From an uncultured Candidatus Saccharibacteria bacterium (GTDB lineage: Bacteria > Patescibacteriota > Minisyncoccia > Phycocordibacterales > UBA9973), in contig CAZLXA010000005.1 of NCBI GenBank assembly GCA_964563715.1, positions 1 through 41,663 of the forward strand: DNA of 41,663 nt, read 5' to 3'. A program made the translations under genes and the position numbers. Shown one piece after another: positions 36,453 to 41,663 of this stretch (within the stretch, counting starts at the first letter, position 1; each line of letters starts with the position of its first letter). The notes under the pieces are model-generated. The model saw only the letters and a program-made list of their open reading frames with translations. It was not told the DNA's origin and made no database searches.

Positions 36453-36830
36453 ATGAAGATTACATCAGAACAAGTAAGAGAAGGTAAACTTAGTCCAAAG
36501 GATTATAAGTGTCCTATGTGTGGTAGTCCTATGAAAGTAGGAAAGAACTTTGGTTATTTGTTTAAATGCAATTGGGGTTTATGTAAATCTAGAAAATATG
36601 GAATACTGTGGTTCCTTAATGGAGAAGCTTATTCTGATCGAGTTGATCTATCATTATTTCAAAACACAACTCCCATAGGTAGTCTAGCATTTAAACAATC
36701 TCTTGATAAATCAACAACTAGAACATATAATCTAATTCTATTTAAACTAAAAATTACCATTAATACAATTCATAATTATAATGGTAAGTATTTAGGTGAT
36801 AGAATTAATTATGGTATTAGTTGGGAATAA
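36453..36830 (+). CDS. Zinc-ribbon protein (125 aa)
   Basis: CPMCGSPM...FKCNWGLC; ATG 36453 directly follows the previous stop. Confidence 0.65.
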   Translation: MKITSEQVREGKLSPKDYKCPMCGSPMKVGKNFGYLFKCNWGLCKSRKYGILWFLNGEAYSDRVDLSLFQNTTPIGSLAFKQSLDKSTTRTYNLILFKLKITINTIHNYNGKYLGDRINYGISWE

Positions 36831-36847
36831 CAAGACTGCGCCAATGG

Positions 36848-36878
36848 ATAATATTCATTTTAAATTTTCCGTTGGGCT
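36848..36878 (+). promoter_or_regulatory. Bipartite motif ATAATATTCATT-N6-TTTCCGTTGGGCT, copy 3, 100 nt upstream of the tmRNA
   Basis: 27/31 identical to the copy upstream of the capsid genes. Confidence 0.6.
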
Positions 36879-36884
36879 GTATGA

Positions 36885-36916
36885 ACAAACAATTACAAAC
36901 AATTACAAACAATTAC
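36885..36916 (+). repeat. Tandem repeat ACAAACAATT x3.2
   Basis: Perfect 10-nt units read directly. Confidence 0.9.
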
Positions 36917-36978
36917 TATCAGGCATTTATATCACAAAGAACTGTAAATGCTTGATAGTTTAATAAATCAAAACAATC

Positions 36979-37307
36979 GGGGGTGACATGGTTTTGATAT
37001 TCTATAAGTACAATTTGATCTCATGCAAGCAGTTATGCTTTGAAATAACAAACAATGTAATTGGCAACACTTACAACGTAGAAGATATGATGAGTATCCG
37101 TACAAGTCATATTGCATCTAGTAACAAGGTTATTGAGATGCCTTCCTTTAAGCAAGAAGTTCTGTTAGCTGCTTAATATTTTGTTAGTTTTGAAAAACTA
37201 ACTGGTGGACATAGACTGTTGAGTTAATAACAGCCCCAAATCAAGCATGTATTAAAAGATTAGAAAGGAAAATAGGATACACGAGGGTTCGAATCCCTCC
37301 ACCTCCA
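36979..37307 (+). ncRNA. ssrA: tmRNA (329 nt), predicted tag GNTYNVEDMMSIRTSHIASSNKVIEMPSFKQEVLLAA at 37063-37176
   Basis: Acceptor stem GGGGGTG/CACCTCC with G3:U70, discriminator A; T-arm GAGGG-TTCGAAT-CCCTC; D-like loop ACATGGTTTTGA; P2 pairs TATTCTAT/ATAGGATA and CATGC/GCATG; internal frame ending LAA-stop. Confidence 0.92.
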
Positions 37308-37363
37308 GATCTATCAAGTAACATACCTCCACGTGGTATAGATCGGGTAATGCTAAATGTTAC
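37308..37363 (+). ncRNA. Minimal HDV-like (theta-type) self-cleaving ribozyme
   Basis: P1 GATCTAT 37308-14 / ATAGATC 37338-44; J1/2 CAA; P2 GTAACAT 37318-24 / ATGTTAC 37357-63; P3 ACC/GGT; L3 TCCACGT; P1.1 GG 37345-46; no P4; GCTAA junction with putative catalytic C37353. Confidence 0.88.
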
Positions 37364-37397
37364 AGTATTTATCAAAAACTAACTAAACATTAAACAA

Positions 37398-37670
37398 ATG
37401 AAACAACAATTTGAATTTACAACAAAAGAAGCTGCTGATTGGATATGTAAGAGATTACGTATTAAACCTTTAAGTCCAGATAAAAATGGAGATTTTAACG
37501 TTAGACAACAGTCAACTATGAAAAGAGTAAAAGCTTTAATTGAAAAAGATTTAATTAATGCTAGATACTCTAATTCTAATAGAGTAATTCACGAAACAGA
37601 TAATCATACTCGGATGGATATATGGATAGGAGATGAATTATTAACAGTAAGGTGCTATAAAACGAATTAA
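37398..37670 (+). CDS. Basic protein with possible HTH (TTKEAADWI)
   Basis: 90 aa; excisionase/MerR-like N-terminal pattern. Confidence 0.5.
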   Translation: MKQQFEFTTKEAADWICKRLRIKPLSPDKNGDFNVRQQSTMKRVKALIEKDLINARYSNSNRVIHETDNHTRMDIWIGDELLTVRCYKTN

Positions 37671-37688
37671 CCAATAGGAGATATTAAA

Positions 37689-37919
37689 ATGTTTAAAATA
37701 GAAAAGAATCAAACAATTAAACAAAAACCAGATCAAAGATCACAACTTACTATTGAATTAGAACAAACATTAGATTCTCTAAAAGAAGGTGAATCTTTTA
37801 TATTTCCACGAAATAAGCTATTTACTTATTATCGAGTAGTAGCAAAAAGATCTGATTCAATTACATTTAAAAGTAATAAAATAAGTGATACAGAAGTAAG
37901 AATATTTAAAGTATCATAG
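37689..37919 (+). CDS. Small putative DNA-binding protein
   Basis: 76 aa; FKIEKN...L.EGESF...VRIFKV pattern common in phages; AGGAGA leader. Confidence 0.55.
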   Translation: MFKIEKNQTIKQKPDQRSQLTIELEQTLDSLKEGESFIFPRNKLFTYYRVVAKRSDSITFKSNKISDTEVRIFKVS

Positions 37920-37944
37920 GTTCTCTTTTTAGTTAGGTTTGGTA

Positions 37945-38029
37945 TTCTCATTAGTTTAATGGTGAACAATAGTTGGTTCTGCTTGTAACTTTCCAGCTAT
38001 AAGACTAGGTTCGATCCCTAGATGAGAAG
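37945..38029 (+). tRNA. tRNA-like RNA with elongated anticodon arm (identity undetermined)
   Basis: Acceptor TTCTCAT/ATGAGAA, T8-A9, D-arm GTTT-AATGGT-GAAC, 8-bp stem ATAGTTGG/CCAGCTAT with a 16-nt loop, variable loop AAGA, T-arm CTAGG-TTCGATC-CCTAG, discriminator G. Confidence 0.8.
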
Positions 38030-38061
38030 CAAGATTTAGTATTAATTAAATAAATAATAAT

Positions 38062-38232
38062 ATGACACTTAGAGAAGCACTTGCAAATCAAGGTAATGAT
38101 CCTGGTGATGTTGATATTATCATACAGGAAATGGTAGAAAATGTATTAAATGGTTCTGATCCAGAAGATGAATTAGAAGCACAAGGATTAGAGCCAGACT
38201 ATGTAATGGAATTATTGGAGGAATGTTTATGA
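38062..38232 (+). CDS. Small highly acidic protein (56 aa)
   Basis: Not in the ORF track: MTLREALANQGNDPGDVDIIIQEMVENVLNGSDPEDELEAQGLEPDYVMELLEECL. Confidence 0.75.
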   Translation: MTLREALANQGNDPGDVDIIIQEMVENVLNGSDPEDELEAQGLEPDYVMELLEECL

Positions 38233-38456
38233 GTAGTGCTCCAAATCAAGGTTTACCTTTAGAATTTATGTATGATGGTATGATATTTTCTAAACAAATA
38301 GATGGATATTATCATTGGTTTAAAGCTACTACACCTAGAATTAAAGAAAATTCAATAGGTAGAATAACAATATCTGAAGCAAAAGATATGTTTAATAATT
38401 GTAAATTTATTGGGAGTATAATAGTATTAAGTGATGATATAAATATTAAAGTTTAA
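38229..38456 (+). CDS. Hypothetical protein
   Basis: ATGA overlap with the previous stop favours ATG 38229 (track start 38223). Confidence 0.6.
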   Translation: MSSAPNQGLPLEFMYDGMIFSKQIDGYYHWFKATTPRIKENSIGRITISEAKDMFNNCKFIGSIIVLSDDINIKV

Positions 38457-38460
38457 GGTT

Positions 38461-38781
38461 ATGAAAAAACTATTAATTGTCTTATTAGTAATGATGTCTA
38501 CTATATCTGTTGCTCAAACCAATATAGATATACAAAGAACTGCTAAATTGTGTTATAATGATACAATACAAATTGACACAAGTTATATTCATAATGAATA
38601 TACTTTCTATGAAGGTAAGTTAAATGTATTTAATATCATTGCAGCAATTGACAGTACTATGCCAAATTACATTTATTATCATTTTTGTGTATCTGAAAAT
38701 AGACCATTATTTGTAATTGACAAAGGTAAAATAATTGGTTGTAAAAATGGAAATCATACAATTTCAGCATTAGAAAAATAA
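38461..38781 (+). CDS. Secreted protein (Sec signal peptide)
   Basis: MKKLLIVLLVMMSTISVA-Q. Confidence 0.7.
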   Translation: MKKLLIVLLVMMSTISVAQTNIDIQRTAKLCYNDTIQIDTSYIHNEYTFYEGKLNVFNIIAAIDSTMPNYIYYHFCVSENRPLFVIDKGKIIGCKNGNHTISALEK

Positions 38782-38787
38782 ACAAGT

Positions 38788-39144
38788 ATGAAAACACTTA
38801 AATTTGTAATTATTGTATTTTTATTAGTAACTACTATTACATCTGTTGCTCAAGTAATATATCAAGATCAACAGATAATTCTAACTCGATATGGTGATGG
38901 TATTTATATTGAGCCTACTAAACCTAATACTTACTTTATAGTTAACATTCAATTAAATAAAGTAGATTTAGATTGGATGGAGTTTAATAGTCTAGAATAT
39001 CTAATACCTTATAATGATTGTATTGGTAAAACATTATATTTAATTCTATATAGATATAATCTAGAAGGATTAAATAGAATAGGTCAATTTAATGAAGTGT
39101 ATTTAGTTGGTAATTATGGATTTTATATTGGAGGTAAATTATGA
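38788..39144 (+). CDS. Secreted protein (Sec signal peptide)
   Basis: MKTLKFVIIVFLLVTTITSVA-Q. Confidence 0.7.
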   Translation: MKTLKFVIIVFLLVTTITSVAQVIYQDQQIILTRYGDGIYIEPTKPNTYFIVNIQLNKVDLDWMEFNSLEYLIPYNDCIGKTLYLILYRYNLEGLNRIGQFNEVYLVGNYGFYIGGKL

Positions 39145-39182
39145 TTATAGGTATTAGTGGTAAATTAGGTTCAGGATGATAG
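39141..39182 (+). pseudogene. Orphaned original 5' end of dNMP kinase (MIIGISGKLGSG**)
   Basis: 12 codons matching the kinase P-loop start, ATGA-coupled to the upstream gene, ended by TGA TAG. Confidence 0.8.
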
Positions 39183-39268
39183 GAATATTTGTTAAAATTT
39201 ATTAAAACAATTGGTTTATGTGGAATTATTTTATACTTTTATCTGGTAAAATTTAAAAATAATCAATT

Positions 39269-40126
39269 ATGGAAACAAGTATTTATGTGTTAAGAGATCC
39301 TATTACTAATGAAATTAGATATGTAGGTTGTACTAAAAATATTGAGCAACGTTATAAAGCCCATGTCAATAAAGCTAGAGATTATAATACTCCTAAAAGA
39401 GAATGGTTAGAGTCTCTTAGAATACAAGGTTTAAAGCCAGTACTAGAAGTTGTAGAGATTGTAAATGATAATTATCTAGAAAGAGAAAAATATTATATAC
39501 AATTGTATCGAAAACAAAATTGTAATCTTACTAATACTGGAGATATTGATTTTAATGGAAATCAAACAGCTTTTAGAACAGGTCATAATCTTACTAAGGT
39601 TGTAGCTCTTTTATTAGATGGAAGTTATTATAATAGTTATGATTCTGTATCTTTAGCTGCTAAACAAAATAATACTAGTGATAGCAATATATCCTCAGCA
39701 TTATGTAAAACAACAAAAACAGCTGTTAAATTAATTTGGCTTTATGAAGATGAATATTATGATTTAACTAAAGAAGATATTGATGCTCTAGTTTTTAATG
39801 CTAATGATAATTCTTTAAAAGGTAATAAAGATACTCAATTCGAAGAAGGTCATATTGCCTGGAATAAAGGATTAAATATTAAACTAAAGCCTAATAAAAA
39901 TGTTCATCAGTATAGTGCAATAACAGGTTTATTTATTAAGACTTGGAATACAGCCAAAGAAGCTGGGGATTCATTAACCATTAACCTTGAAGCAATAGGT
40001 CAATGTGCCAGAGGTAAATCTAAAACAGCAGGAGGATATATATGGAATTATAATAAATATGAATATATAGATCCTCCTAAATATATTGGTAAAACTAAAA
40101 CATCAATAATTAATAACTTAAAATAA
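39269..40126 (+). CDS. Free-standing GIY-YIG homing endonuclease with NUMOD1-like DNA-binding domains
   Basis: SIYVL.DP....IRYVG.T.....R...H; LERE.YYI; NLTN; C-terminal VHQYS..G.FIKTW....EA.......I..C..G..KTAGGYIW. Confidence 0.88.
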   Translation: METSIYVLRDPITNEIRYVGCTKNIEQRYKAHVNKARDYNTPKREWLESLRIQGLKPVLEVVEIVNDNYLEREKYYIQLYRKQNCNLTNTGDIDFNGNQTAFRTGHNLTKVVALLLDGSYYNSYDSVSLAAKQNNTSDSNISSALCKTTKTAVKLIWLYEDEYYDLTKEDIDALVFNANDNSLKGNKDTQFEEGHIAWNKGLNIKLKPNKNVHQYSAITGLFIKTWNTAKEAGDSLTINLEAIGQCARGKSKTAGGYIWNYNKYEYIDPPKYIGKTKTSIINNLK

Positions 40127-40127
40127 T

Positions 40128-40934
40128 ATGGCAATAATTGGCATTTCGGGAAAGTCCAGATCAGGAAAGGACTTAGTTGGTAAGATAATTCAATACTTAA
40201 CTACAACTGGTGGAAATAAAGATAGTGAAATTCCATCATTCAGAGATACTGTTGATTATCAATCAGATTGGATAATTCATAAATTTGCTAATCCGTTAAA
40301 AGATATAGTTTGTATATTAACTGGTTGTACTAGAGAACAATTAGAAGATAATAAGTTTAAGAATAGTAAACTTCCAGATGAATGGATTAGATATGGTTTT
40401 GTTCAAGGTTTCTATAAATACTATAATGGAGGTTGTGTTGAAGAAACTATAATGAATAATGTTCAATGTGATAAAGAACGTTATGATTTAGAACTTAAAG
40501 TTAATTGGCAAACAGCATATAAAGGTCATTTAACATATCGTGAATTACTTCAATATCTAGGTACAGATTTAGTTAGAAATAAACTACATGAAAATGCTTG
40601 GATAAATGCTACATTTAGTAAGCATAAACCTGAATATAAGTATAATGATAATAGTAAAGCTACAGTTGATAGTTGGCATCATACATCACTACCTAATTGG
40701 ATCATCACAGATTGTCGATTTGAAAATGAAGCTAAGGCTATTAAAGATAGAGATGGATTGTTGATTAGAGTTAATAGAGGAATTTATCCTAATGATCCTA
40801 TTAATATTGGAGTTCATGAATCTGAAACAAGTTTAGATAATTATCAATTTGATCATACAATTAATAATAATGGAACAATTGATGAATTAATTGAGAAAGT
40901 AAAACAAATACTAATAAAGGAGAAAATAATATGA
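40128..40934 (+). CDS. Deoxynucleoside monophosphate kinase
   Basis: IIGISGK..SGKD P-loop, FA.PLK, T.RELLQ.LGTD..R, ITDCRF.NE, H.SE..LD, I.NNGT. Confidence 0.9.
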   Translation: MAIIGISGKSRSGKDLVGKIIQYLTTTGGNKDSEIPSFRDTVDYQSDWIIHKFANPLKDIVCILTGCTREQLEDNKFKNSKLPDEWIRYGFVQGFYKYYNGGCVEETIMNNVQCDKERYDLELKVNWQTAYKGHLTYRELLQYLGTDLVRNKLHENAWINATFSKHKPEYKYNDNSKATVDSWHHTSLPNWIITDCRFENEAKAIKDRDGLLIRVNRGIYPNDPINIGVHESETSLDNYQFDHTINNNGTIDELIEKVKQILIKEKII

Positions 40935-41663
40935 AATTGATAAAAGCATCGTATGAAATAATAACTCCTATTAATGGAGAAGAAATACTTAAACAAATAG
41001 AATTAGCAGCTAGAACTTGTTATAAGAGTGAGGATAAGATTGAATATGCTGATATAGATATGTATCATATAGGAGGAGGCAAATATGTAGATTTTGTTAC
41101 TTTTATATCAGATTCTATTAATCAGAATAGTAAGTTTGATATGAGTATCTTATTATCTTCTAATATGATAAAAGCTGGATCTTGTATAAGTGCTCGTACT
41201 CTTATACCTAAACTTATGAACCTTAATCATGAAGCTATGTTAGAATTTGGGGGAATGATAACAGTGAAATTCATAGTTGATAGAGGTATAAGTCACGAAT
41301 TAGTTAGACATAGAGTTGCATCATTTGCTCAAGAGAGTACTAGATATTGTAATTATGGTAAAGATAATAACGTTTCTTTTATATTACCTTTGTGGTGTGA
41401 TGAATTAGAAGAAGGTAATTATGATTATGTAATACAATGTGATAATGTTGGACAAGGCTTATGGATGGAAACTATGTTAGATTTAGAAGATAAATATTTA
41501 ACATTAATACAAAGAGGTTGGTCACCTCAACAAGCACGTTCTGTACTTCCTAATTCTCTTAAAACTGAAATTAATGTATCAGCTAATATTAGAGAATGGC
41601 GACATATCTTTAAACTTCGTACAGCTAAAGCAGCACATCCTCAAATGAGAGAAGTTATGTGTC
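40931..41663 (+). CDS. thyX: FAD-dependent thymidylate synthase (truncated by the window end)
   Basis: Not in the ORF track: MKLIKASYEI...AARTCYKSE...HEAMLEF...DRGISHELVRHRVASFAQESTRYCNY...PQQARSVLP...REWRHIFKLR...AHPQMRE. Confidence 0.93.
   Translation, partial: MKLIKASYEIITPINGEEILKQIELAARTCYKSEDKIEYADIDMYHIGGGKYVDFVTFISDSINQNSKFDMSILLSSNMIKAGSCISARTLIPKLMNLNHEAMLEFGGMITVKFIVDRGISHELVRHRVASFAQESTRYCNYGKDNNVSFILPLWCDELEEGNYDYVIQCDNVGQGLWMETMLDLEDKYLTLIQRGWSPQQARSVLPNSLKTEINVSANIREWRHIFKLRTAKAAHPQMREVMC

Follow-up and report, generated by a model that had tools for sequence, protein, structure and literature searches.

How does a gene keep working when a nuclease gene lies inside the coding sequence of its catalytic loop? 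Homing endonucleases are thought to persist in essential genes only by means of self-splicing introns, inteins, or gene splitting. The question is raised by a dNMP kinase locus near one end of the window (the whole stretch of DNA analyzed here, 41,663 nucleotides long), which is a phage contig on which the PHROGs for major head, portal, and large terminase were matched. At this locus, a short copy of the kinase start (the stub) is followed by a GIY-YIG nuclease gene and then by an intact kinase gene with a start of its own. A sequence-only reading of this DNA had proposed a splicing-free nuclease cassette that interrupts the P-loop coding sequence and carries a recoded kinase head. The core of this proposal was supported by recurrence of the layout in other phages, by a sister locus that lacks the insert, and by a nuclease-less contig in one run; no intron signal was found. 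We consider it very probable that the locus holds a GIY-YIG homing cassette within the P-loop coding sequence of the dNMP kinase gene, supplied with its own replacement head, and that the native head has been left behind as the stub.

The features of the locus are collected in Table 1. The arrangement was as the sequence-only reading had described it: a 12-codon stub closed by TGA TAG (39141-39182) and coupled to the upstream gene through overlapping stop and start codons, then the GIY-YIG gene, then the restarted kinase, with Pfam matches above their cut-offs for both of the last two. The hexamer TCAGGA stands at 39171-76 and again at 40161-66, and deletion of the 990 nt at 39177-40166 does leave an in-frame kinase, as had been stated.

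Table 1. Features of the interrupted kinase locus (positions are those of the window)
Feature	Position	Strand	Basis or remark
Upstream 118-aa ORF with hydrophobic N terminus	38788..39144	+	TGA stop overlaps stub ATG (ATGA)
Stub, 12 codons of dNMP kinase head (MIIGISGKLGSG)	39141..39176	+	Ends at the G codon preceding K of Walker A GxGK
Tandem stops TGA (39177-79) and TAG (39180-82) closing the stub	39177..39182	+	Sequence read
Inserted cassette, 990 nt (stops, 5' region, nuclease gene, 13-codon replacement head)	39177..40166	+	Limits set by stub/head homology
Cassette 5' noncoding region with two copies of TGNTAAAATTTA (39190-39201, 39244-39255)	39183..39268	+	
GIY-YIG homing endonuclease gene, 285 aa	39269..40126	+	Pfam PF01541, PF22083
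Replacement head of 13 codons (MAIIGISGKSRSG), including rare ones that end in G or C	40128..40166	+	Codon score, stub comparison
Intact dNMP kinase gene, 268 aa	40128..40934	+	Pfam PF21448, phrog_139
ThyX (flavin-dependent thymidylate synthase), cut by window end; context only	40931..41662	+	PF02511, 2e-35

The kinase ORF begins MAIIGISGKSRSGKD and matched both DNMK (PF21448; 50.8 bits, cut-off 27.1) and phrog_139 (8e-44, residues 1 to 263), with an intact Walker A loop, GKSRSGKD, at residues 8 to 15. The ORF upstream of the stub belonged to no Pfam or PHROG family and had no relatives in viral_contigs; the GGAGG that precedes the stub consists of Gly-Gly codons of that gene, and an argument from Shine-Dalgarno sequences was dropped, as only 4 of the 35 window genes have a motif of that kind. 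The two copies of TGNTAAAATTTA in the cassette 5' region are the only exact occurrences in the 41.6-kb window, and the region resembles the DNA upstream of the nuclease gene at another locus, L064. Also in this region, at 39234-39241, is TACTTTTA, which had been put forward as a promoter. A sigma-70-type scan gave 17 sites compared with 22.6 expected, none of them on the + strand in 39177-39268, and a terminator scan found no terminators. TAnnTTTG is the Bacteroidota-type -7 promoter motif; it was not enriched (60 occurrences versus 66 expected), and TACTTTTA is one base away from it. No second copy of the kinase, the nuclease, or the stub region was found in the 808-kb assembly, in which the nuclease is single copy.

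The stub reads ATG ATT ATA GGT ATT AGT GGT AAA TTA GGT TCA GGA (39141-39176), and its resemblance to a kinase start goes beyond chance. When the kinase head was compared with the 350 nt upstream of the nuclease, the stub gave a local protein alignment score of 42 (z 4.7), a score reached by none of 100 shuffled heads, and it agrees with the family consensus G-K-I/L-G-S-G of relatives that lack a homing endonuclease gene. Stub and head of the window are identical at 21 of 33 nt and at 9 of 11 residues. We rejected the idea that TCAGGA marks a target-site duplication: the hexamer codes for the conserved S-G, such a duplication is not needed, and other loci use different codons at this place.

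Stub and head differ in their codons. Those of the stub are typical for the phage (40th percentile; GC3, 0), as is the codon usage of the nuclease gene (GC3, 0.10). The earlier description of the new head as rich in rare, GC-richer codons held up well: kinase codons 2 to 15 lie in the lowest 0.04% of all 14-codon windows in the phage by codon score, and their GC3 of 0.43 is reached by only 1.6% of windows; the relative usage of GGC, TCG, TCC, and GAC in the 35 window ORFs is 0.033, 0.028, 0.017, and 0.08, respectively. A similar tendency was seen elsewhere, with a mean head-minus-body GC3 of +0.12 in nuclease-linked kinases (n = 8) versus -0.02 in nuclease-less kinases (n = 43; one-sided Mann-Whitney p 0.007), the excess being small or absent in L087 and L091. 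We discarded the serine codon TCG as a mark of nuclease-linked heads, as four nuclease-less heads have it too.

The nuclease itself matched the GIY-YIG family PF01541 (E 6e-9; 36.5 bits, cut-off 22.6; residues 4 to 84) and, at 27.4 bits against a cut-off of 27, the I-HmuI NUMOD-like domain PF22083, with a predicted DNA-binding region at about aa 224 to 258. All eight related kinase-linked nucleases that we scanned were above the PF01541 cut-off. The L064 nuclease, whose gene likewise stands before a dNMP kinase gene, is 53% identical to that of the window. GIY-YIG catalytic residues comprise the two tyrosines of GIY and YIG, followed by an arginine, a glutamate, and an asparagine. Y6, Y18, G20, R28, H32, E73, and N89 are invariant among three nucleases, those of the window, L064, and L017, and these residues may include the counterparts of the catalytic residues of I-TevI. 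A phmmer search of PDB sequences with the nuclease gave no match at E 0.01.

We then consider how widely this arrangement occurs. With the window nuclease as the query, 87 loci were collected, in 10 of which a dNMP kinase starts within about 20 nt of the nuclease stop; a set of 80 kinase loci added one more nuclease-linked dNMP kinase (L248). Merging of duplicates and near-identical contigs left nine distinct elements (the window, L064, L081, L087/88, L091, L093, L094/95, L017/103, and L248), and seven of these have a kinase-head stub upstream of the nuclease. In all seven, the homology between stub and head stops after the ...S-G codons, the head continuing with AAA GAY, such that the break point is the G|K codon junction of Walker A GxGK each time. 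The same order of stub, nuclease, and head was found beside other P-loop kinases (L084/85; L086, where it is degenerate; L083; and L168, in a 642-kb phage record). Related nucleases also occur in Flavobacterium and Cytophagales phages. No nuclease domain was found in any of 31 upstream ORFs of nuclease-less kinases, and outside the kinase-linked group, no GIY-YIG relative with a callable downstream ORF had a convincing stub. Of these relatives, L116 reached a z of 2.3 in the stub scan, and L158 (z 17.4) was set aside, as the gene downstream of it resembles another copy of the nuclease. L114, with a deoxynucleoside kinase downstream, has a weak possible stub that was seen by eye only and missed by the aligner.

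In a tree of the nucleases, the kinase-linked ones form a clade (SH-aLRT 95) of 14 rows, of which 12 are kinase linked. The N-terminal domain of the window nuclease fell outside this clade in the free tree, and an AU test did not reject its placement inside (constrained tree log-likelihood +13.2; p-AU 0.70). In the kinase tree, the nuclease-linked kinases are scattered, with 8 changes for 10 rows compared with a shuffled mean of 9.3.

A comparison of filled and empty sites was provided by a sister element. The kinase of L180 is 97% identical in protein sequence to those of L178 and L179, and no GIY-YIG match was found in the 1,500 nt upstream of it. Its first 36 nt equal the stub of L178 at 36 of 36 positions and that of L179 at 35 of 36, and they are followed by the same sequence that follows the new head in L179; the stub-like start joins AAA GAT directly, with GGA|AAA as the exact junction. 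The pair L180 and L179 delimits a 658-nt insert exactly. At one precise site, the cassette is present in some phages and absent from others, with about 98% DNA identity between their kinases. L180 and the filled allele differ at 22 of 588 nt, and these differences are strongly clustered: nt 13 to 33 of the head (21 nt) account for 12 of them, which leaves 10 for the other 552 nt (Fisher p 1.7e-10).

For the window itself, position 39165 is linked to 40158 through the two letters CT in one contig of run X1, which is a net 990 nt shorter and preserves the frame. This run contains the window itself and is possibly its own source, so that the nuclease-less contig, which has a depth of 5.16 versus 19.4 for the main contig and 31 letters on its shorter side, is possibly non-independent. 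It reads ...GGT AAA TCT AGA TCA GGA AAG GAC, that is, GKSRSGKD, which combines a stub-like 5' side with the "SR" of the new head instead of the "LG" of the stub. This allele has TCT AGA in the place of TTA GGT and so does not carry the final 11 nt of the stub, and the stub is not simply an untouched native head; the contig could instead represent a secondary deletion. The prediction that nuclease-less relatives would show the stub joined to the kinase body was confirmed for the sister element by L180, whereas the predicted GKLGSGKD was not what run X1 contained. A relative with a depth of 17.7 shares 39093-39164 with the window. Runs X5 to X7 contained short pieces of the stretch only, with no joint bearing on the cassette, and the nine runs listed included none of RNA. 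The collections searched contained no close relatives of the window phage: a distant DNA search in phages matched ThyX only, a 24-mer of the window stub had no match in viral_contigs, the kinase reached at most 42% identity in viral_contigs and 48% in metagenome_contigs, and the nuclease at most 51 to 53%.

These observations suggest how the cassette may spread. The free-standing cassette separates the G codon from the K codon of the Walker A loop, and the displaced native head persists as a 12-codon stub that ends at once. Because the ATG of the new head comes 1 nt after the nuclease stop, the kinase would be expressed from this head without splicing, probably by translational coupling to the nuclease ORF. 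In kinase alleles that lack it, the nuclease would cut within the P-loop coding sequence or close to it. A cassette-bearing genome would then serve as the repair template, with one homology arm formed by the native head and the other by the kinase body. Its diverged head would shield the occupied allele from renewed cutting and would prevent the left broken end from pairing with the wrong copy.

The most serious alternative is that an ordinary free-standing nuclease lies in the gap upstream of the kinase and that the stubs are accidental. T4 Seg proteins are free-standing GIY-YIG nucleases with NUMOD-type DNA-binding modules, which cut the neighboring gene in nuclease-less phages, with co-conversion of flanking markers. 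Their genes lie between genes, and they are not known to be accompanied by a displaced gene fragment; the window differs in that the insertion is inside an ORF and a stub remains. By such intronless homing (for the T4 Seg enzymes, see PMC2330249 and PMC2988022), the head would be the allele of the donor, and wherever upstream homology was missing, the left end would be joined illegitimately, each stub recording a separate imprecise repair. It speaks for this alternative that L064 and L017/103, two of the nine elements, have the nuclease directly upstream of the kinase and no stub, showing that the nuclease can also sit cleanly there; that the upstream genes vary between loci, so that upstream homology must often be missing; and that stub and head of one locus belong to one kinase subtype (GY/GY, GK/GK, NTNL/NTNL), as expected if homology of the kinase body guided repair. 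Against it, the break point is one codon junction in 7 of 7 stub-bearing dNMP kinase elements, and within sublineages the DNA right after the junction is common to L081 and L094, and again to L087 and L091, though the stubs differ, which a single inherited junction explains better than separate accidents do. We regard this alternative as unlikely; it departs from the homing cassette mostly over the origin of the first stub, and stub, nuclease, and head would home as a unit under either.

It is less probable still, and in our judgment quite improbable, that the locus is a decaying and immobile relic, in which a nuclease gene was captured long ago by a duplication of the kinase start and has since become inactive or domesticated. 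Cleavage by the nuclease is a prediction, the stub of L086 is degenerate, and L237 has lost the nuclease body and kept the stub and the new head, all of which would suit a relic. Against it stand the intact 285-aa nuclease ORF of the window, in which the residues conserved in three homologues sit in the GIY-YIG domain, a stub that is still a perfect consensus head with its ATG, and the presence or absence of the cassette both among phages with nearly identical kinases and within one sample.

Removal of the insert from RNA has its precedents. Group I introns can carry GIY-YIG ORFs, as does that of T4 td, which encodes I-TevI, and like the window cassette, such introns occupy highly conserved coding sequence for catalytic sites and involve the same nuclease family. 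In the window, no ribozyme was found, and continuity would be restored in DNA and translation rather than in RNA. No Rfam intron family was detected at E up to 1 across 36500-41663, which argues against a group I intron; nor is the insert an intein, as TGA TAG follows the stub and the nuclease has its own start and stop. Although removal of the insert keeps the frame, TCAGGA stands at both of its ends, and the stub ends in GGA and stop codons in a way reminiscent of the T4 gene 60 take-off site, we regard an intron with an internal ORF or a GGA-to-GGA bypass, with the stub as a true first exon, as exceedingly improbable, given that noncoding sequence makes up just 86 nt plus 1 nt of the insert, that 39120-39290 folds no better than shuffled sequences (z +0.72), that the downstream gene has a full head and its own ATG, that insert lengths elsewhere are not divisible by three (658 nt in L179), that other stubs run 2 to 5 codons past the junction before their stop with no common take-off context, and that a 990-nt bypass would be some 20 times the 50-nt gap of gene 60.

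Two comparisons help to place the homing cassette. T4 mobA is accompanied by a 50-nt bypass element in gene 60, and in Aeromonas phage Aeh1, nrdA is split by mobE (PMC2988022). These cases share with the window a free-standing phage homing endonuclease in a critical coding region, together with an accessory feature that keeps the gene working; they involve two reassembling polypeptides or ribosome hopping, whereas the window is predicted to make one full-length protein from the replacement head and to discard the native head.

The closest analogue is the endonuclease ORF with a replacement 3' end of fungal mitochondria, of which the phage case is a 5' mirror image. Such mobile ORFs carry a foreign 3' gene end in Allomyces macrogynus atp6 and in Glomus sp. 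atp6, atp9, cox2, and nad3 (PMC3630166), and partial C-terminal duplications of atp6 and cob adjoin endonuclease ORFs (PMC6279837). As in the window, an endonuclease ORF (LAGLIDADG or GIY-YIG) lies within a protein-coding gene, neither an intron nor an intein is involved, the duplicate gene end is the expressed copy and the native end is an unexpressed fragment (for the window, this is predicted from the ORFs), and the copies are far apart in DNA and close in protein, as in the Glomus atp6 copies with 63.5% DNA identity and 91% protein identity (PMC3630166). The likeness that the sequence-only reading had drawn is sound in that an ORF in the gene, a diverged duplicate end that, judged from the ORFs, takes over, and a native fragment are all present, here at the 5' end. 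The phage cassette differs in replacing the 5' end and start codon, so that it must supply translation initiation and not a stop; in having a phage and not an organelle as its host, with a replaced piece of just 13 codons; and in the association of a single nuclease clade with a single motif, the Walker A loop, in several families of kinases. A full-text literature search, covering few subscription journals, found no paper in which a replacement 5' gene end is described for a phage nuclease.

A broader reading is more tentative, and we think it slightly more apt to fail than to hold: a GIY-YIG clade would have become specialized for the DNA that encodes the Walker A loop in nucleotide kinases of phages (dNMP kinases, a deoxynucleoside kinase, and P-loop kinases left unassigned) and would spread as a "head-swap" cassette whose recoded start has three roles. 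This start would replace the native head functionally; it would be the immunity determinant, by virtue of the rewritten 21 nt beside the insertion point; and it would act as a hostage device: with the start codon of the kinase placed at the stop of the nuclease, kinase translation would need an open nuclease ORF. L237 would be the end stage, with the stub fused to the last nuclease codons and coupling restored after loss of the nuclease body.

What the phages appear to have found is a simpler solution than those above: to bring along a rewritten copy of the gene start, a solution that is recurrent and tied to the P-loop, among the most conserved motifs in biology. Pairs of stub and head are natural sets of target and immune sequences, from which the recognition site of an uncharacterized GIY-YIG clade could be read off and tested. 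Short orphan ORFs that annotation pipelines miss or miscall are predicted upstream of nuclease genes, and caution is called for, as the first codons of such genes differ in history from the remainder. The cassette also connects phage biology with the gene-end replacement long known from fungal mitochondria. If the broader reading is true, introns, inteins, and gene splitting would be joined by a fourth way for a nuclease to persist in an essential gene.

The window, contig C5 of assembly G000 (808 kb, 48 contigs, completeness score 89.6%), is a phage contig: PHROGs comparisons placed genes for the portal, the large terminase and a major head protein on its minus strand and also identified baseplate genes, and nucleotide-metabolism genes occupy its right end; it is probably phage DNA that was binned together with a small-genome bacterium. 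Rfam also identified a full-length tmRNA at 36979-37310 (+; RF00023, E = 3.6e-20, 55.5 bits where the gathering score is 47), immediately followed by a sub-threshold match to an HDV-like ribozyme (37308-37364, +, 29.8 bits against 44). ARAGORN left the tmRNA uncalled; its sole report was an unusual tRNA-like gene at 37945-38030 (+), whose anticodon has 2 bases.

The sequence-only reading had placed a nuclease cassette with a replacement 5' end in the P-loop of the dNMP kinase gene, and we confirmed this observation, every one of its coordinates being correct when the sequence was read again. A 12-codon kinase stub precedes a GIY-YIG nuclease gene, whose product has a NUMOD-like region in its C-terminal part, and the kinase ATG lies 1 base past the nuclease TAA stop, opening a new kinase head of 13 codons.

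Features around the nuclease cassette in the window
Feature	Position	Strand	Basis or remark
118-aa ORF	upstream of stub	+	its TGA stop is overlapped by the stub ATG at 39141
Stub, 12 codons MIIGISGKLGSG	from 39141	+	sequence reading; closed by TGA TAG
Noncoding stretch, 86 bases	between stub stops and nuclease gene; promoter proposed at 39234	+	sequence reading
GIY-YIG nuclease gene, 285 aa	39269-40126	+	PF01541, 36.5 bits (cut-off 22.6)
dNMP kinase, 268 aa, start MAIIGISGKSRSGKD	40128-40934	+	PF21448, 50.8 bits; phrog_139, 8e-44
ThyX	directly after dNMP kinase	+	gene context

Most nuclease-less relatives of the kinase share the consensus start M-I-I-G-I-S-G-K-I-G-S-G-K-D, to which the stub conforms. 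When the kinase head was aligned to the 350 nt preceding the nuclease gene, the score was 42 (z = 4.7), and none of 100 shuffled heads scored as high. In the alignment of stub with head, 9 of 11 residues but only 21 of 33 bases are shared, and a recent tandem duplication is therefore ruled out as their origin. As had been claimed, the head uses codons that are rare for this phage: GGC, TCG, TCC and GAC have relative usages of 0.033, 0.028, 0.017 and 0.08, respectively, and in 35 ORFs of the window 99.96% of all 14-codon windows score higher than kinase codons 2 to 15. Codon usage is ordinary in the stub (40th percentile) and in the nuclease gene (GC3 of 0.10). Head GC3 minus gene-body GC3 averaged +0.12 across 8 kinases with a linked nuclease and -0.02 across 43 without one (one-sided Mann-Whitney p = 0.007); the most extreme value is that of the window (+0.37), and there is no excess at the related loci L087 and L091.

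A profile search found related nucleases at 87 loci, at 10 of which a dNMP kinase starts within ~20 nt of the nuclease stop. With L248, added by a search using the L087 kinase as the query, and with duplicates and near-identical contigs merged, 9 distinct dNMP kinase-linked elements were left. A kinase-head stub lies upstream of the nuclease in seven of these (the window, L081, L087/88, L091, L093, L094/95 and L248) and is lacking there in two (L064 and L017/103). All seven share one junction: stub-to-head similarity ends past the S-G codons, and the head then reads AAA GAY. L064 encodes the nuclease nearest to that of the window (53% identical), and its dNMP kinase starts one base past the nuclease, with the junction ...AAATAATATG as in the window; the DNA upstream of both nucleases has a repeated TGNTAAAATTTA motif, which occurs exactly in the window only at 39190 and 39244. 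At every locus the kinase ATG lies near the nuclease stop, at most 17 nt ahead of it or 5 nt past it.

The stub layout also occurs beside other P-loop kinases, at L084/85 (stub end ...GRHG, head ...KRWGKD), L083 and L086, where the stub is degenerate. In a 642-kb uncultured phage (L168, LR756502.1, 1451-2881), a related GIY-YIG gene is flanked by a stub ending in ...IIFLGKSGSG and by a different P-loop kinase with the head ...CIIMGPSGSGKD (...PSGSGKD); the layout thus extends to a huge phage and to a further kinase family. At L114, where a deoxynucleoside kinase lies downstream of the nuclease, the stub is doubtful, and GIY-YIG relatives adjoining other genes showed no stub on alignment.

Related nucleases are present in Cytophagales, Hymenobacter and Flavobacterium records; in the unannotated record of Flavobacterium phage FPSV-D18 (L167, MW442830.1, 796-3099), an ORF flanks the related GIY-YIG gene (1486-2220) on each side, and no stub was seen. 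At L158 (2001-2940), the start of the gene downstream of the GIY-YIG gene very strongly matches the DNA upstream of that nuclease gene (score 76, z = 17.4); the explanation is probably not a stub but nuclease paralogues in tandem. L081 and L094 (1931-2512 in each) are 83.5% identical over the stub and roughly the first 510 nt of nuclease coding sequence; the genes upstream show no relationship, and blastn left the C-terminal (DNA-binding) parts of the two nucleases unaligned, a pattern that suggests domain exchange within the nuclease family. At L237 (1398-1500), the stub MIIGINGYAGS continues in frame into ~20 codons resembling the C terminus of the window nuclease; TAA T ATG GCA comes next and leads into an intact dNMP kinase. 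This looks like a cassette that has lost its nuclease body by deletion, and it fits a late stage in the life of the element.

Near-identical phages differ in the presence of the nuclease. The kinase of L180 is 97% identical in protein sequence to that of L178/L179 (the same contigs as L087/L088), and no GIY-YIG gene was found upstream of it. Its first 36 bases match the stubs of L178 (36/36) and L179 (35/36), after which it runs straight into AAAGATACTGTCGGC..., the sequence following the new head in L179; the 658-nt insert in L179 lies exactly between GGA and AAA. Empty and filled kinases differ at 22 of 588 positions, 12 of them in head bases 13 to 33 and 10 in the other 552 (Fisher p = 1.7e-10). 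Thus, for this sister element, the predicted empty-site relative with the stub joined directly to the kinase body exists; the native head survives as the stub, and its locally rewritten copy forms the new head. Between the common upstream gene and the kinase start, these phages also differ by small ORF-sized indels (~260 nt more in L179 and ~220 nt more in L178), so that the DNA to the left of the kinase varies independently of the nuclease.

We rejected the reading of the 990 nt (39177-40166) as an intron, an intein or a bypassed stretch: an Rfam search at E up to 1 found no intron family, the noncoding part of the insert is only 87 bases, the stub-to-nuclease region folds no better than shuffles, the L179 insert is out of frame, the stub is closed by stops, and the kinase has a complete start of its own. 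The recurrence at one junction, the L180 empty site and a nuclease-less contig at the window's own locus, described next, support the core of the original interpretation.

A nuclease-less form was also found at the window's own locus. The full stretch is present in four freshwater-metagenome runs, all from one study; one of them, X1, is possibly the source sample, and its main contig, at depth 19.4, agrees with the window. A single further X1 contig (depth 5.16, 31 letters on the shorter side of the joint) joins 39165 to 40158 with CT between, a net in-frame loss of 990 nt. The sequence-only reading had expected the stub joined to AAGGAC; in this contig the length and frame agree, but the allele reads ...GGT AAA TCT AGA TCA GGA AAG GAC (GKSRSGKD), its 5' part aligned with the stub and its SR codons those of the new head, with TCT for the rare TCC. 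Either the last 11 stub bases arrived with the cassette, the stretch from the cut to the insertion point having been co-converted, an outcome to be expected of an enzyme that cuts slightly upstream, or the contig is a secondary loss through stub/head recombination plus one change. Were this one contig native, the new head would differ from it by an extra Ala codon and otherwise, at the comparable codons, by synonymous changes only, which would fit recoding under selection. Another X1 contig (depth 17.7), common to the window over 39093-39164 and then diverged until 40866, is a related phage with a stub-like kinase start.

In a catalytic-domain tree, 12 kinase-linked nucleases plus L082 and L089 formed one clade (SH-aLRT 95). 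The free tree put the window nuclease elsewhere, among poorly resolved branches; a tree constrained to group it with the kinase-linked clade was 13.2 log-likelihood units better (p-AU 0.70). In the kinase tree the nuclease-linked genes were scattered (8 changes for 10 rows, versus a shuffled mean of 9.3), only 2 changes being forced by starred branches. Nuclease occupancy was low, at 1 of 62 kinase loci in the first kinase searches and 3 of 80 in the L087-kinase search, and none of 31 ORFs upstream of nuclease-less kinases contained a nuclease domain.

The comparisons show the anatomy of the element, one shared junction, its presence or absence in near-identical phages and a head that is locally diverged. 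We infer that the nuclease would cut empty alleles in the P-loop coding sequence or close to it and that repair would copy the cassette, homology arms being provided by the native head on one side and the kinase body on the other. Rewriting of the head may shield the occupied allele, and the kinase would be translated by coupling to the nuclease ORF, its ATG being close to the nuclease stop in all loci. Phage nucleases inside genes, as described in PMC2988022, split the gene or require ribosomal bypass, whereas the window element would replace the head; full-text literature searches, in a collection with few subscription journals, found no case of head replacement in phage. The closest systems described (PMC3630166, PMC6279837) are fungal mitochondrial endonuclease ORFs, which insert into atp6, atp9, cox2 or nad3 and bring an expressed 3' gene end of foreign origin, the native end being left downstream. 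The phage element would be their 5' mirror image, tied to one motif.
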